A stretch of 35,913 nucleotides of DNA from a virus: positions 1 to 35,913 of the IMG/VR virus record IMGVR_UViG_3300045988_052978; one strand, 5' to 3'. Positions 22,264 to 35,913 of the stretch are shown here, piece by piece. Each line of letters starts with the position of its first letter. Within the stretch, counting starts at the first letter, position 1. A model generated the notes under the pieces. The model saw only the letters and a program-made list of their open reading frames with translations, did not search any database and had not been told where the DNA came from. Both the position numbers and the translations under genes were made by a program.

Positions 22264-22488
22264 TCAGGCGCTGGCGGAACCCACCAGCTCATCCAGCGAG
22301 CAGCCCAGCGCCTTGGCCAGCGCTACCGCCGTCACCAGCGACGGCACCTTGAGGCCGCTCTCGAACCGGTTGATGGCCGCCGCCGTCACATCGCACTGGC
22401 GGCCCAGCTCTGACTGGCTCAGGCCCTTGGCCTCACGCCGCCACCGGATGTTGTTGCTTAGTTGCACAATATCACCACCTTTAACCAT
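22264..22488 (-). CDS. Cro-like XRE HTH regulator (probable true start GTG at 22467)
   Basis: HTH segment GLSQSELGRQCDVTAAAINRFESG. The ATG at 22488 lacks an RBS, whereas AAAGGTGGTG-N5 precedes the GTG at 22467. It is the first gene of the minus-strand early operon. Confidence 0.75.
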   Translation of the reverse strand: MVKGGDIVQLSNNIRWRREAKGLSQSELGRQCDVTAAAINRFESGLKVPSLVTAVALAKALGCSLDELVGSASA

Positions 22489-22808: not shown

Positions 22809-23153
22809 ATGGCTTTTTACAAAAATTTTGTTTCGCTTTGCAATTCGGTGGGGAAATCGCCGACAGCGGTCATTCTGGAAATTGGTCTCGAAAGATCGTC
22901 CGTAACTCGCTGGAAGAAGGGTGGACTGCCGTCCGATGCCACTGCGCTTCGCATAGCGAATTACTTCAAAATAACAGCGGAAGAACTGATGAAAGATGAA
23001 AACCACCCCGCCGATGGCGAGGTGGTTGAGGAACGGGTTACGCCTGCGGAGCAGTATCTGCTGCGCCTGTTTCGGCTTGTGCCGAAAGAACAGCAGGAGA
23101 CTGTTCTGATGGGGGTAGAGCTGACACTACGTAGTCAAGGATTACTGAAATAG
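22809..23153 (+). CDS. CI-like XRE HTH repressor
   Basis: HTH segment SPTAVILEIGLERSSVTRWKKGGLPS. 114 aa. It is divergent from the Cro-like gene and is the first gene of the integrase-containing plus-strand module. Confidence 0.75.
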   Translation: MAFYKNFVSLCNSVGKSPTAVILEIGLERSSVTRWKKGGLPSDATALRIANYFKITAEELMKDENHPADGEVVEERVTPAEQYLLRLFRLVPKEQQETVLMGVELTLRSQGLLK

Positions 23154-23219
23154 CCACCTCAAGAGCGGCGGCGGGATCGCTGGAACTGCGGATCATCTGG
23201 AGCAAGCGGCTTTCTGGCG

Positions 23220-23249
23220 TTGACATGATATGTATCCTCCGTCCATAAT
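23220..23249 (+). promoter_or_regulatory. Promoter TTGACA-N18-CATAAT upstream of the HIRAN-TM2 gene
   Basis: -35 at 23220-25 and -10 at 23244-49, about 45-50 nt upstream of the ATGs at 23294/23300. Confidence 0.45.
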
Positions 23250-23293
23250 TTATCGCTCACTGGCTGGGGCCAGAAAAAGATACACAGGGAGAG

Positions 23294-24178
23294 ATGAGGA
23301 TGGAATATAACTACTATGTGGCGGGAACATCCTATCGCGAAGCGAATCTGGAGCGCATGCTCAGCCGAAACCCTGATTTTGACGCTCCAAAGTCGTACAT
23401 CCTAGACCACTACGGCGAAGATGACCACATCTACCGCTATCACCGCTACTACACTTCCGATATCAAGTTTACACCAGAGCCGACGAATCCGCACGACCCA
23501 AACGCGATCCGCATTGATGTGGACGGAAATTTTGTAGGCTACGTCAAGCGTGGCAGCACCGGAAGAATACGCAACCTGCTGAACACACCCGGCGCGTCTG
23601 TCCGCGCTGAGGTCTACGGCGGGCCGTATCGTTATGTTTACGTCGATGACTACGGCAATACGAATGCGCTGTATGGCGACTCGCCTTTTGGCTGCATGTA
23701 TACGTTCACCGTGCCGGGAAGCGGGCCACAGGGTCAATACGTGGACGCTGATCCGGGACGAGCTCCCGCAAGGTATTGCCGCCATTGCGGCGCACGGATC
23801 GAAGCTGGCGCCAAGTTCTGCACCAACTGCGGACAGCCCTTGCCCGCCGAAACGCGGACAGCCGCGAAGTATTGTCGCAGCTGCGGTCGCCAGCTGCATA
23901 TTAACGCGGACTACTGTCCTATCTGCGGCCAGTCCACCCACCAGCAGCCAGACGGTGCTACCAACAATGCAGCCTACGCGCCGCCCGGCAGAAAGCGGAT
24001 CGACAAGTGGGCCGCGTTCGTCCTCTGCCTTCTCTTTGGCGGTCTCGGCGTCCACCGCTTCTATGAGGGCAAAGTCGGCACAGGCATCCTCTGGCTCTTC
24101 ACCGCTGGCCTATTCGGTGTCGGCTGGGTGATTGACCTGATCATCATCCTCACCAAGCCTAATCCGTACTATGTCTAG
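23294..24178 (+). CDS. HIRAN domain - double zinc ribbon - TM2 domain membrane protein
   Basis: HIRAN motifs: [10 protein letters not shown] and [25 protein letters not shown]. Zinc ribbons: [20 protein letters not shown] and [22 protein letters not shown]2 domain: [37 protein letters not shown]. The ATG at 23300 may be the true start. Confidence 0.8.
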
Positions 24179-24181
24179 CCC

Positions 24182-24198
24182 GTGCCCAACTTGAGCAC
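24182..24198. repeat. Dyad hairpin H4: gtgcccaacttgagcac
   Basis: Identical to H1, including the flanking ggg on the minus strand. It lies 3 nt after the HIRAN-TM2 stop codon. Confidence 0.7.
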
Positions 24199-24213
24199 GA
24201 AATGATTTGATAA

Positions 24214-24245
24214 GGCCCCGCCGTCTCCGCAACGCCGGCGGGGCC
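24214..24245. terminator. 10-bp GC hairpin ggccccgccg-N12-cggcggggcc; possible terminator lacking a clean U-tract
   Basis: Perfect inverted repeat downstream of the HIRAN-TM2 gene. The flanks are only moderately T-rich, and only on the minus strand. Confidence 0.35.
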
Positions 24246-24318
24246 ATGCATCCGGCCCGCGCCACCATCGCTTGCCGGGTGCACGTCCAGCGTAGCAATT
24301 TTCGGTCGGGTAGGTCAA

Positions 24319-24364
24319 GCCCGAATCTTGGCTTTCGACAGGGCTCGACGGCCAAGATTCGGGC
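24319..24364 (+). promoter_or_regulatory. Perfect 14-bp inverted repeat gcccgaatcttggc-N18-gccaagattcgggc in the leader of the membrane HTH gene
   Basis: Arms at 24319-32 and 24351-64. It ends 34 nt before the ATG at 24399. Confidence 0.55.
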
Positions 24365-24398
24365 CGGGCCGACCCAGAAAGGGGTCGAAGGAGAGGAA

Positions 24399-24947
24399 AT
24401 GGTACAAAAGTTGCAAGAAAAATGCCGAGAGGCGCGAGACCGTCTCGGCTACACCAATCAGGACATCGCCGATGCAACAGGCATCCCTTTGTCCAGCGTC
24501 AAGAACTTTTTCGCGGCCACCAGCAAGGTACCCGGCCTCGTTTACGCCGGGCTGATTTGCAAATTTCTGGGCGTCTCTATCGACGAGTGCCTTTGCATTA
24601 CGTCCGCCGAGGACGCCGAAGCGCGGCTGCGGCGGCAGCTGAAAGAGGATCATATAAATAGCGAAAACCAGCGGCTGACCGAAGTCAACAGCCTGCGGAA
24701 AGAATTGGACAAAAGTCGCCTGTCGACGATCCTTGTCCTGTCCTTTCTGTGTGCCGTCCTCTCGGTGACGCTGATTTTCTATATCGTGATGGATTTCCGC
24801 ATCAAGGACGCGGGTCTCATCCAGAGTGGCCAGGTGGGCGCCGGCGCGTGGGGCATCATCGCCCTGGTAGCCATCGCCTTCGGCGTCATGTCCTCCGCGC
24901 TGTTCTCCGCCCTGCGCTACGCCCGCCGCATCGCCTCGGAGGAGTAG
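24399..24947 (+). CDS. Membrane-tethered XRE HTH protein (HTH + coiled coil + 2 TM helices)
   Basis: The start MVQKLQEK follows AAGGAGAGGAA. HTH segment GYTNQDIADATGIPLSSVKNFF. TM segments LSTILVLSFLCAVLSVTLIFYIV and AGAWGIIALVAIAFGVMSSALF. Confidence 0.7.
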   Translation: MVQKLQEKCREARDRLGYTNQDIADATGIPLSSVKNFFAATSKVPGLVYAGLICKFLGVSIDECLCITSAEDAEARLRRQLKEDHINSENQRLTEVNSLRKELDKSRLSTILVLSFLCAVLSVTLIFYIVMDFRIKDAGLIQSGQVGAGAWGIIALVAIAFGVMSSALFSALRYARRIASEE

Positions 24948-24955
24948 GGGGGGGG
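24947..24955 (+). repeat. G9 homopolymer between the stop of the HTH-TM gene and the integrase GTG start
   Basis: The sequence taGGGGGGGGGagagacGTG. The run is the only Shine-Dalgarno-like sequence for the integrase. Confidence 0.85.
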
Positions 24956-24961
24956 AGAGAC

Positions 24962-25990
24962 GTGAAAATACCAAAGGCCACGAAGCTGCCCTCCGGCAAC
25001 TGGAATATCAACATGATGGTCGACCGCCAGCGGATATCCATCACCGCCGCCACCAGGAAAGAGGTGGAGCGCCAGGCCGCCGCCATCAAAGGCGGCGCGA
25101 AGCTGGCACCCAAAAACAGTTTGACGGTGGGCGAGGCTATCGACAAGTATATCGAGAGCAAGGACGCCGTCCTGTCCCCGTCCACGGTGGCCGGGTACAG
25201 GCGTATCCGGGCTAACGCCCTCCAGGACTTGATGCCCCGCCCCGTGGACAGCCTGACGGCTCAAGACGTGCAGCGGTCTATCAACCTCATGGCGCGGGAT
25301 AAGTCCCCTAAAACGGTGCGCAACGCTCACGGCCTCCTGAGCGCCGCCATGGCGGTGTACCGACCCGACCTGGTACTCAGGACGACCATGCCGCAAAAGC
25401 AGCGCTACGACATCGCCATCCCGTCGGACGACGATGTGGCCGCTATCATGCGCTCCGCTCAAGGCGAACCGGCAGAGCTGCCCATCCTGCTGGCCATCTG
25501 GCTGGGCCTGCGCATGTCCGAGATCCTCGGCCTCAAGTGGTCGGACGTGGACGGTGGCGTGCTGCACATCCGCCGCGCCCTGGTTGACGAGGGCGAGAAG
25601 ACCACCAAGACCTACGCATCTCAGCGCGATCTGCTGATCCCGGACTACATCGCGGAGCTGCTGGCCCGCGCTCCTCACGACGGGGAACGCATCGTGATCT
25701 ACACCCGCCGCGGGCTTTACGTCCGCTTCCAGGCCATCTGCCTCCGTGCCGGCGTCCAGCACTACCGATTCCACGACCTGCGCCATATTAACGCCTCTGT
25801 TATGCTGGCGCTGAACGTGCCCAATAAGTACTCGCAGGAGCGCCTGGGCCACGCCACGGACAACATGCTGCAAACAGTCTATCAGCACACGATGGCCGCC
25901 CAGCAACTCGCCGTCGCCGCCAAGCTGGACGACTACTTCAACGCAAAATTACAGACGGAATTACAAATGGAAAATCGAGAAACGCAGTAA
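24962..25990 (+). CDS. int: Tyrosine recombinase / phage integrase
   Basis: 342 aa from the GTG. It has an N-terminal SAM-like core-binding region. Catalytic-domain motifs LGLRMSEIL, HDLRH and LGHATDNMLQTVYQH are present. Confidence 0.9.
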   Translation: MKIPKATKLPSGNWNINMMVDRQRISITAATRKEVERQAAAIKGGAKLAPKNSLTVGEAIDKYIESKDAVLSPSTVAGYRRIRANALQDLMPRPVDSLTAQDVQRSINLMARDKSPKTVRNAHGLLSAAMAVYRPDLVLRTTMPQKQRYDIAIPSDDDVAAIMRSAQGEPAELPILLAIWLGLRMSEILGLKWSDVDGGVLHIRRALVDEGEKTTKTYASQRDLLIPDYIAELLARAPHDGERIVIYTRRGLYVRFQAICLRAGVQHYRFHDLRHINASVMLALNVPNKYSQERLGHATDNMLQTVYQHTMAAQQLAVAAKLDDYFNAKLQTELQMENRETQ

Positions 25991-26678: not shown

Positions 26679-27095
26679 TCACGCGGTCTTGACCCGCAGC
26701 GCCACATTGTTGACGGTAGCGCCGCCGCCAGACAGCACCAGCGTCAGAGACGCACCGGCTACGCAGCATGCCTGCCGCACGGAGGCCGGGAAGCCCAGAA
26801 CGACTTCGTCACCGGCCGCGGTGGCCGTGGCGGTAGCGGTGGCGCCGGGATAGGCCACGCCGTCCTTGTACAGCGTCGCCGTGACAGCGCCCGCCGCCGT
26901 GGGTGCCAGCGTGATGGACACATCCACGTCATAGATGCCGTCGCAGCCGCGGCCGCCGAAGATGTTGACGGCGTTGCCGTTCAGGCGGACGTCACAGCCA
27001 TGCTGCCGGATCGTGCTGCCCAGAGGGATCACACCACCCTCGGCAACAGTGACAGGCGTCTGCATGGCGGCGTACAGGATAGATTTACAAGCCAT
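26679..27095 (-). CDS. C1q/TNF-like jelly-roll protein resembling the BclA C-terminal domain (no collagen stalk)
   Basis: 138 aa, with alternating beta-strand pattern. Motifs GIYDVDVSITLAPTAAGAVTATLYKDGVAYPGA and ASLTLVLSGGGATVNNVALRVK recall exosporium BclA-CTD. Call made by eye only. Confidence 0.4.
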   Translation of the reverse strand: MACKSILYAAMQTPVTVAEGGVIPLGSTIRQHGCDVRLNGNAVNIFGGRGCDGIYDVDVSITLAPTAAGAVTATLYKDGVAYPGATATATATAAGDEVVLGFPASVRQACCVAGASLTLVLSGGGATVNNVALRVKTA

Positions 27096-35186: not shown

Positions 35187-35859
35187 TGCCTCCGTTGTCC
35201 ACCAGATAATTGGTCTCCTTCGGCAGACTGTTCAGCAGCACCAGCCGCAGCTTGCCCACCGGCGTCATGCACCAGTTGCCGCCGTACCACCCGGCGATGG
35301 CCTGTAGCAGCTCCCGGCAGGTGTAGTTTCTGGGATTTGTCACCTTGTAGTTCTTGCCGCTGGCGGAAAAGAAGCTGTCCGTCTCGCTGTCCAGCGTGAT
35401 CCCGACTTGGGTACAGACCCGGTTGACGATGGCGATATCCGTCACGCCGCCGCTGGCCACGCTGCCGGTGTACCACTGTTCCGTGGCCAGCATCTTGTCA
35501 TAGCCGTGCAGCGTCAGCACGCCGGTCTGCTTGTTGTAGCTCCGCTTGTCCACGTTGTACACGCCCTGGGCCACCCATTCGCTGGGCTCGCCGGAATCGC
35601 CCACAAGCCGCACCTGCGGTCTTAATTCAGCCATTCTGGCCACGCTGGAGGAGAGCACCCCCAGCAGCTGCACGGATATCTCCCCGGCCACCGCCCCGCC
35701 CACCGTGGGGGTGTCCCCCGCGAATAGGGCGATGGCGGTTTTCAGAGAGCCTTTAATAATGGTGCTTTCTCCGTAGGCTGTGCCATCCACCAGCAGCCGG
35801 GATTCCTTGGTGTGAGAACCCGTCAGGAGCTCCTGATATCTCGCGCTTACTTCCTGCAT
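35146..35859 (-). CDS. Tail-tip protein (Tal-like N-terminal-type module)
   Basis: 237 aa. It is the second gene after the tape measure once the circle is closed. Its first 65 nt are also present at window positions 1-65. Confidence 0.6.
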   Translation of the reverse strand: MQEVSARYQELLTGSHTKESRLLVDGTAYGESTIIKGSLKTAIALFAGDTPTVGGAVAGEISVQLLGVLSSSVARMAELRPQVRLVGDSGEPSEWVAQGVYNVDKRSYNKQTGVLTLHGYDKMLATEQWYTGSVASGGVTDIAIVNRVCTQVGITLDSETDSFFSASGKNYKVTNPRNYTCRELLQAIAGWYGGNWCMTPVGKLRLVLLNSLPKETNYLVDNGGNAITFGGDRILVG

Positions 35860-35913
35860 CGCTCACCTCTCGATCAGCGGGAATGTGATCCCGCTCCACC
35901 AGTCCGCGCTCGG
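35795..35913. repeat. Right copy of the 119-bp terminal overlap
   Basis: Identical to 1-119. Confidence 0.95.

Follow-up and report, generated by a model that had tools for sequence, protein, structure and literature searches.

The viral record IMGVR_UViG_3300045988_052978 of IMG/VR comprises 35,913 nucleotides, and this whole stretch is referred to here as the window. Its lysogeny module contains a gene for a protein that joins an N-terminal HIRAN domain, two zinc ribbons, and a C-terminal TM2 membrane domain (HIRAN-TM2), and the possible role of this protein is the subject of the present analysis. The ends of the window (positions 1-119 and 35795-35913) form an exact 119-bp direct repeat, which marks the record as a complete circular assembly of ~35.8 kb, with ~35,794 bp of unique sequence. 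The window is the whole genome of a temperate siphophage, and its host is probably Vescimonas, a member of the gut Oscillospiraceae; a MATE transporter flanking one integrated copy is identical to a protein of Vescimonas sp. (Oscillospiraceae). The lytic genes (tape measure, major head, portal, large terminase, ParB-like, DnaB, endolysin, and tail fibre) all lie on the minus strand. The lysogeny module occupies positions 22809-25990 on the plus strand and consists, in that order, of genes for a small helix-turn-helix (HTH) protein, the HIRAN-TM2 protein, an HTH protein with two transmembrane (TM) helices (HTH-TM), and a tyrosine integrase. A first-pass annotation, made from the sequence alone, had located the HIRAN-TM2 gene between the repressor and the integrase. 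This location in the module is correct, with the HTH-TM gene (24399-24947) lying in addition between the HIRAN-TM2 gene and the integrase.

The HIRAN-TM2 coding sequence spans positions 23300-24178 on the plus strand and encodes 292 amino acids (aa), while an alternative ATG at 23294 gives 294 aa. The start at 23300 is likelier, since homologs begin with MEYN and a GGGAGAG ribosome-binding site is found 7-8 nt before this second ATG. Both the 292-aa and the 294-aa forms are on record. The exact protein has been recorded under automatic labels only, as DAN95654.1 ('TM2 domain [Caudoviricetes sp.]') and in IMG as 'restriction system protein', on 76 contigs. The HIRAN domain covers aa 3-143 (23300-23722, plus strand) according to Pfam, AlphaFold2 (AF2), and Foldseek. 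The Pfam match to PF08797 (aa 55-109) reaches 35.3 bits against a gathering score of 24.7, and a helical insert typical of the phage subtype lies within the domain at aa 16-39. The AF2 model, built from a 23-sequence family alignment, is confident for the N-terminal domain (aa 1-143), with predicted local distance difference test (pLDDT) values of 85-95. When this model was compared with the PDB by Foldseek, the 16 best matches were all HIRAN structures, from either HLTF or Lactobacillus Lp_0118, and were followed by a sharp drop. Their probabilities range from 0.92 to 1.00 (at least 0.99 in 15 of the 16), with E-values of ~1e-3 and a TM-score of 0.43; the E-values are modest because the query was full length and its HIRAN domain carries the helical insert.

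Both zinc ribbons follow on the plus strand. The first is formed by C162, C165, C176, and C179 (23777-23830) and the second by C194, C197, C208, and C211 (23873-23926); each matches Zn_Ribbon_1/DZR, and over aa 161-212 Pfam gives 46.8 bits for Zn_Ribbon_1 and 41.1 bits for DZR. The cysteines of the second ribbon are at least 90% conserved in the family, and the first ribbon is missing from several members. The double ribbon described in the first-pass annotation is therefore present in the window protein, but it does not define the family, in which the number of ribbons varies between 0, 1, and 2. The TM2 domain (24002-24154, plus strand) is supported by Pfam, by AF2 helices, and by hydropathy. 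Its match to PF05154 (aa 237-283) scores 62.4 bits against a gathering score of 27.9. The AF2 helices comprise aa 238-257 and 264-287, with an invariant HRFYEGK loop between them and an invariant tail, LTKPNPYYV, after them; AF2 confidence is low for this TM part. The protein has no N-terminal hydrophobic segment, contains eight zinc-binding cysteines, and carries a basic flank, GRKRIDK, before the first TM helix. For want of a signal sequence, and given the cysteines and the basic flank, the HIRAN head and the zinc ribbons would face the cytoplasm, with the TM2 hairpin at the C-terminus predicted to lie in the cytoplasmic membrane. The profile and Foldseek searches that the first-pass annotation had proposed thus back all three of its domain assignments: HIRAN, with a Pfam score above the gathering threshold and a fold model matching HLTF and Lp_0118, the zinc ribbons, with their Zn_Ribbon_1 and DZR matches, and TM2, with its strong Pfam score and two helices.

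The HIRAN domain of human HLTF provides the main functional reference. It binds 3' ends of single-stranded DNA (ssDNA), and it is required for the antiviral restriction of HIV-1 (PMC6511057). A HMMER alignment places aa 57-107 of the window protein onto the HLTF segment that holds N90-K113. In our residue numbering of this alignment, N65 and D68 pair with HLTF N91 and D94. N65, Y83, and K85 do not vary within the close family, and conservation of D68 reaches at least 90%. Across 146 diverse representatives, the only invariant columns are the glycine of the first beta strand and the N, D, and A of an N-P-x-D-x-N-A motif, which correspond to HLTF N91, D94, and A97 in the same numbering.

Around this conserved pocket the gene behaves as exchangeable cargo. 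The GC content of the open reading frame (ORF) is 0.577 and that of its third codon positions (GC3) is 0.683, compared with a GC3 of 0.84-0.91 for structural and backbone genes, and the lower GC noted in the first-pass annotation was thus real. The gene occupies the same slot, in synteny, at 12 of the 12 gene-bearing lineage loci examined, counting a nonsense allele in the locus L013. In sister phages its alleles are 42-49% identical where the flanking genes are 96-100% identical. Relative to the window, L008 has 100% identity in Cro, 100% in HTH-TM, and 96% in the integrase but only 48% in HIRAN-TM2. L010 likewise has 100% in the small HTH protein and 96% in the integrase but 49% in HIRAN-TM2, together with a 150-aa N-terminal extension. 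Mean pairwise identity within the protein is 53% for HIRAN, 45% for the linker plus zinc ribbons, and 79% for TM2. Besides the number of zinc ribbons, alleles differ in having DUF4236 or other N-terminal extensions, and their modules are visibly shuffled. In L101 the same HIRAN-zinc-ribbon head is mounted on a different, non-TM2 two-helix anchor. The first 20 residues (MRHLKFSEFQEYQQFTKPAE) of this HIRAN cargo (L101:1537-2391) are shared exactly with unrelated BRCT cargo (L104:3333-4286 and L105:3381-4313), which points to cassette shuffling. The L013 allele (L013:5001-5870) has one in-frame TAG between a 202-aa HIRAN-Zn-ribbon ORF and a 68-aa TM2 ORF; a natural split of the gene was considered for this locus and rejected in favour of a nonsense allele, given this single stop.

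The HIRAN gene is also variably present. Among nine IMG/VR relatives gathered via the conserved HTH-TM gene, it was found in only three, and the remainder carry other cargo. The alternatives include a DUF4236-TM protein, a small zinc-ribbon protein, a DUF2513 protein, and TerB-like+BRCT proteins. The block of L011 and L013 also has a DEDDh exonuclease+BRCT protein, matching PADLOC candidate PDC-S48 (E 2.5e-33). The discordant divergence, the alternative cargo, the low GC3, and the nonsense allele together characterize the gene as moron-type accessory cargo. Its moron-like nature had been proposed in the first-pass annotation and agrees with the lower GC, with a presence that varies while the flanks are conserved, and with the promoter-like motif. 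The TM2 domain, for its part, is probably an interchangeable anchor rather than a specific effector. As a separate observation, the slot equivalent to positions 23154-24398 is a hot spot for cargo in L097, L099, L102, L104, L105, L011, and L013, and several of the cargos found there have DNA-end or DNA-damage themes.

The relatives of the HIRAN part extend far beyond this phage lineage. An exhaustive phmmer search against 1.84 billion cluster representatives retrieved 1,066 relatives at E <= 1e-3, of which 482 also pass E <= 1e-10. A TM segment is present in 133 (89%) of the 150 best representatives, N-terminal of HIRAN in 92 and C-terminal in 41. The other 17 have no hydrophobic segment, some being fragments, and 11 of the 150 match the TM2 profile of the family. 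All of the 146 representatives submitted to Pfam match HIRAN, and their other matches are restricted to TM2 (9), DUF4236 (9), and zinc ribbons; no enzymatic domain was found by Pfam in these 146 proteins of the HIRAN subtype. The first-pass annotation regarded the architecture as unusual, a view that does not hold in the face of 1,066 representatives and the high proportion of TM segments. As judged from sequence comparison, the window protein is a TM2/zinc-ribbon variant of a very large family that has been named once. The tether itself is, to judge from the TM segments on either side of HIRAN in 133 of 150 proteins, from the swapped anchor of L101, and from the N-terminal hairpin of the pneumococcal member, a selected feature of this family.

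That pneumococcal member was recovered by tblastn, in which prophage proteins of pneumococcus and Streptococcus pyogenes match with E-values of 4e-9 to 2e-8. In the prophages S. pneumoniae IPP45 and S. pyogenes 315.3, a HIRAN gene of the same subtype is flanked by a cI-like repressor and an integrase, and three further unrelated phages (L014, L108, and L109) show the same placement in the lysogeny module. The pneumococcal gene has been named thaL, from annotation alone, in a 2025 study on the transformation-prophage arms race (PMC12637031). Among isolated phages, no full-length relative of the window protein and no DNA similarity to the locus were found. The best 80 matches listed from species-representative genomes in a TM2-pattern scan included no full-length HIRAN fusion, all being Zn-ribbon-TM2 proteins. 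NCBIfam has no family model for the window protein or for its streptococcal and Roseburia counterparts, and PHROGs gave matches only to families of unknown function. Our literature search found no functional study of HIRAN-TM2 proteins, of phage or prophage TM2 proteins, or of anti-phage HIRAN proteins. A membrane-tethered HIRAN family is thus covered by none of the curated family and defence catalogues searched (NCBIfam, PHROGs, and PADLOC).

The genomic neighbourhoods, whose survey had been suggested in the first-pass annotation, are enriched in recombinases. In 22 of the 45 dereplicated IMG/VR loci surveyed, the large ORF closest to the HIRAN gene encodes a recombinase and lies on the same strand no more than 1.5 kb away, compared with ~14% expected at random (binomial P ~3e-8). 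A local hidden Markov model search classifies these 22 recombinases as 15 tyrosine and 7 serine enzymes, and Pfam as 14 and 7. Endolysins account for many of the other neighbours and indicate the opposite side of the attachment (att) junction. So tight a same-strand linkage could mean that the protein belongs to the lysis-lysogeny or recombination machinery, either as a 3'-end damage sensor feeding a switch together with HTH-TM or as an accessory of integration and excision. The small HTH protein has no S24 match in Pfam, so induction may need another sensor, and in eukaryotes HIRAN reads forks and DNA damage (PMC6511057). Linkage to the mechanistically unrelated tyrosine and serine recombinases, however, suggests a shared position and not a shared mechanism. 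The streptococcal versions adjoin genes annotated as cI-like repressors, and within the lineage of the window nearly identical Cro, HTH-TM, and integrase genes (96-100%) stand beside unrelated cargo, beside 48% alleles, and beside one nonsense allele. A role in the switch or in recombination is consequently regarded as improbable.

Defence or exclusion is the most plausible class of function, as the first-pass annotation had also proposed, because sister phages hold the PADLOC candidate PDC-S48 in the same slot and superinfection exclusion (Sie) genes of Firmicutes phages occupy the interval between repressor and integrase. Within this class, it is suggested that the window encodes a protein without enzymatic activity, expressed from the prophage, which caps 3' ends of DNA at the inner membrane face and so keeps out incoming DNA, a proposal that we put forward as slightly short of an even chance. 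The HIRAN head would retain the pocket residues with which HLTF holds the 3'-OH terminus of DNA that is single-stranded or frayed. The tether would restrict end-binding to the inner membrane face, the site at which linear foreign DNA with free ends enters the cell, where the integrated prophage and the host chromosome should present no free ends. The protein could then capture and cap the 3' end of incoming phage DNA. Occupancy of the 3'-OH might block circularisation, cos-end ligation, or priming, or might leave the end exposed to host exonucleases, and the outcome would be superinfection exclusion or defence without an enzymatic effector. The zinc ribbons might form a variable spacer or assist in binding, with TM2 as an exchangeable anchor. 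We infer expression in lysogens, DNA-end binding, and an exclusion phenotype. A broader claim is made with somewhat greater reserve: tethered HIRAN proteins (ThaL-like, more than 1,000 clusters), which would nearly all belong to prophage lysogeny modules, may constitute a widespread, effector-less system against DNA entry that tells self from non-self by geometry alone. In phages of gut Oscillospiraceae this system would be represented by its TM2/zinc-ribbon variant, the window protein. A capping domain confined to the membrane would meet only linear incoming DNA, from phages and perhaps from transforming ssDNA, and never the resident circular or integrated genomes.

Several points weigh against the capping proposal. 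At the position of Y93, a stacking residue in HLTF, the close family has H, Y, or S, and the equivalents of R71/Y72 are insecurely aligned owing to the insert. The S. pyogenes protein and some other family members have no TM segment. The literature searched links neither TM2 nor HIRAN to exclusion, thaL having been named only (PMC12637031), and the defence families in PADLOC match nothing beyond the shared HIRAN domain. Expression in lysogens is a presumption, and an antisense ORF begins within the promoter motif. The capping model also presupposes that the target phages expose 3' ends on entry. Finally, TM2 is more conserved, at 79%, than a passive anchor needs to be, a possible sign of a specific function or partner in the membrane.

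This last point bears on abortive infection, in which HIRAN would sense the free 3' ends of replicating or incoming DNA and the TM2 hairpins would oligomerise into a depolarising pore, killing the cell before phage release. TM2 and the tail are the most conserved part of the protein, no enzymatic effector occurs in the family, so the membrane part could itself be the effector, and the nonsense allele of L013 would be expected of a costly gene. A sensor fused to a small TM effector is moreover a known design among defence systems. The anchor is nevertheless exchangeable, as seen in the non-TM2 anchor of L101 and in the N-terminal hairpins of the ThaL type. Zn-ribbon-TM2 proteins without a sensor domain are very common in Clostridia chromosomes, oligomerisation is conjectural, and the AF2 confidence is low for the TM part. 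Abortive infection is accordingly rated as unlikely, although less so than the other rivals of the capping proposal.

The region upstream of the gene contains two overlapping signals. The first-pass annotation had assigned the gene its own promoter, and a sigma-70-like motif, TTGACA-N18-CATAAT, does lie at 23220-23249 on the plus strand with 11/12 matches. Five such promoter sites occur in the region, compared with 2.1 expected. The motif is identical in L003, L010, and L098 but is not clearly kept in the other two allele families of the intergenic region. It also overlaps the start of a divergent small ORF of 62 aa (50-62 aa elsewhere) at 23038-23226 on the minus strand, which has a GGAGGA ribosome-binding site and an ATG start; the -35 hexamer overlaps this ATG, and the spacer of the motif holds the GGAGG ribosome-binding site. 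The presence of the motif stands, and its role as a dedicated promoter is made less certain by the overlap and by the other alleles. The small ORF, with GGAGG-N6-8-ATG and a related N-terminal peptide of ~30 aa, is found in all three intergenic allele families, and gene finders called it in L007, L008, and L011. At its far end it overlaps, in antisense, the 3' end of the small HTH gene, and it may contribute to the switch either as a small regulator protein or through an antisense transcript.

Downstream of the gene lies a conserved structured element of 220 nt (24179-24398, plus strand). The first-pass annotation had ended the gene in hairpins, and both exist, at 24181-24199 and 24215-24246, as the first two of several helices in this element. 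A simple intrinsic terminator was considered and is not supported: no T-run follows either hairpin, the terminator scan flagged neither, and the hairpins form part of a conserved leader. Over 10 loci with differing upstream cargo, the element shows 84% column identity. It folds much better than its shuffles, with a minimum free energy z of -4.5, and 95% of the cells are paired, with 7 compensated pairs (0/500 shuffles). No match to Rfam was found for it. The element precedes the HTH-TM gene as its leader and closes the cargo slot on the downstream side, where it forms the recombination boundary; it may regulate or attenuate HTH-TM and int.

Among the other genes of the module, the small repressor-type HTH gene (22809-23153, plus strand) encodes 114 aa with weak HTH_3, RstR, and DicA-like matches; a Pfam scan of this repressor candidate found no peptidase S24 match, and the protein is highly allelic among sister phages, with 24-100% identity. 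Divergent from it is a Cro-like HTH gene (22264-22467, minus strand), served by a divergent promoter with 12/12 matches at 22748-22719 on the minus strand. The HTH-TM gene (24399-24947, plus strand) encodes 182 aa with an HTH_3 match of 29 bits and TM segments. Its product combines an XRE-type HTH with two C-terminal TM helices, gives weak RstR-like and CapH-like matches, and would be a membrane-anchored transcription regulator within the lysogeny module. Across the phage lineage this gene is 71-100% identical regardless of the upstream cargo. It was considered as an obligatory partner of HIRAN-TM2 and rejected, being kept whatever cargo precedes it and absent in L011 and L013. The tyrosine integrase gene (24962-25990, plus strand) starts with GTG and encodes 342 aa, the length found in its homologs, with a Phage_integrase match of 53.9 bits; in the integrated copies L004 and L009, host genes come directly after it. 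Just past the integrase/att region, a 138-aa ORF (26679-27095, minus strand) gives a weak match resembling the BclA C-terminal domain (19 bits, below the cut-off), and it is kept in sister phages as a gene of 133-134 aa.

Comparison with known systems helps to place the window protein. Among defence candidates, the nearest is PDC-M03 of PADLOC, which also contains a HIRAN domain and whose PDC-M03B component is matched weakly (E 3e-4). PDC-M03 is a two-gene system of a HipA-family kinase and a HIRAN protein as predicted antitoxin. The HIRAN gene of the window, in contrast, has no adjoining kinase gene, its neighbours being the HTH, HTH-TM, and integrase genes, and it has a membrane anchor. A known defence system was consequently rejected, the PADLOC matches being only weak ones to PDC-M03B via HIRAN with no HipA partner.

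The C-terminal half (aa ~150-294) is homologous, at 40-55% identity, to Zn-ribbon-TM2 proteins annotated as 'NINE protein' or 'TM2 domain-containing protein', many copies of which were retrieved from bacterial genome assemblies. These proteins have no HIRAN head. One of them forms a parallel TM2 case, since orf32 of the Roseburia phage Shimadzu fills the same slot between repressor and integrase. In a further locus (L106:2438-3469), an HTH/Peptidase_M78 (ImmR/ImmA-like) pair is immediately followed by a gene that fuses FtsK-gamma, which is DNA-binding, to an Mrr-type restriction endonuclease and TM2. The settings of TM2 genes are varied, and some adjoin stress-related genes (PMC3861447), which would suit a lysogenic conversion that benefits the host in a manner unrelated to DNA, e.g., through envelope or stress physiology via the TM2 module. 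Such a role would leave unexplained both the invariant HIRAN pocket motif and the repeated occurrence of DNA-handling heads (HIRAN, FtsK-gamma + Mrr nuclease) on membrane anchors of lysogeny modules, and we consider it very improbable indeed. Capping of 3' ends at the membrane remains the preferred function.

The position of the gene recalls the Sie proteins. Lactococcal Sie2009 and Ltp of the S. thermophilus phage TP-J34 are small membrane-associated prophage proteins, encoded between repressor and integrase genes, that act at DNA entry. The window product is likewise a predicted membrane protein, and its gene lies in the same interval; no sequence or domain similarity was detected between it and the Sie2009/Ltp type. 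Proteins of that type are known to act from the outer face of the membrane or on the tape measure protein, and we know of none that contains a DNA-end-binding domain. If the capping proposal is right, it would represent a new and very common mechanism of prophage exclusion, in which a free 3' end is recognised at entry without a nuclease, a kinase, or a signalling module. It would also assign a function to two abundant modules of gut phages, the TM2 proteins and the phage HIRAN proteins, and contribute to an account of host range and of superinfection dynamics for phages of the gut microbiome and of streptococci.

The closest named relative is ThaL, represented here by IPP45_00002, with 31% identity over aa 6-118 (E 4e-9). 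It has the same insert-containing HIRAN subtype, a two-helix membrane tether, no enzymatic domain, and the same site between repressor and integrase on the same strand. The order of its parts is reversed, however, with a basic N-terminus, a TM hairpin, and then HIRAN; its anchor is unrelated to TM2, zinc ribbons are absent, and its host is Streptococcus and not a member of the Oscillospiraceae. ThaL raises the alternative of an anti-transformation ('anti-curing') factor that blocks transforming ssDNA, so that homologous recombination cannot delete the prophage. Imported ssDNA enters with its 3' end first via ComEC, which speaks for this alternative, whereas the presumed host (Vescimonas, Oscillospiraceae) is not known to be naturally competent. 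The membrane location fits, HIRAN binds ssDNA 3' ends (PMC6511057), and the pneumococcal homolog was named in a study of exactly this arms race (PMC12637031). On the other hand, thaL was named and not assayed in that study (PMC12637031), and the family is spread over many phage lineages. As the function of the window protein, anti-transformation is no less improbable than a role in the switch, and exclusion of incoming DNA by end-capping is preferred here too; if true, the latter may nonetheless bear on the resistance of prophages to chromosomal curing by transformation. The family lends itself to direct testing, since thaL, a genetically tractable member, sits in an established lysogen system.

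A further comparison is with HLTF itself, whose HIRAN structures (PDB 4s0n, 4xzf, and 5bnh) have the same fold and share the N-P-x-D-x-N-A pocket motif. In HLTF, which works in the nucleus, HIRAN is joined to a SNF2 translocase and a RING ligase. The window-type HIRAN, unlike that of HLTF, has a helical insert of 25-40 aa, and the only parts joined to it are zinc ribbons and a membrane anchor. The HIRAN-dependent restriction of HIV-1 by HLTF provides a precedent for the antiviral use of 3'-end binding, and if the proposed function of the phage proteins is correct, bacteria and humans would use the same reader of DNA ends against viruses.

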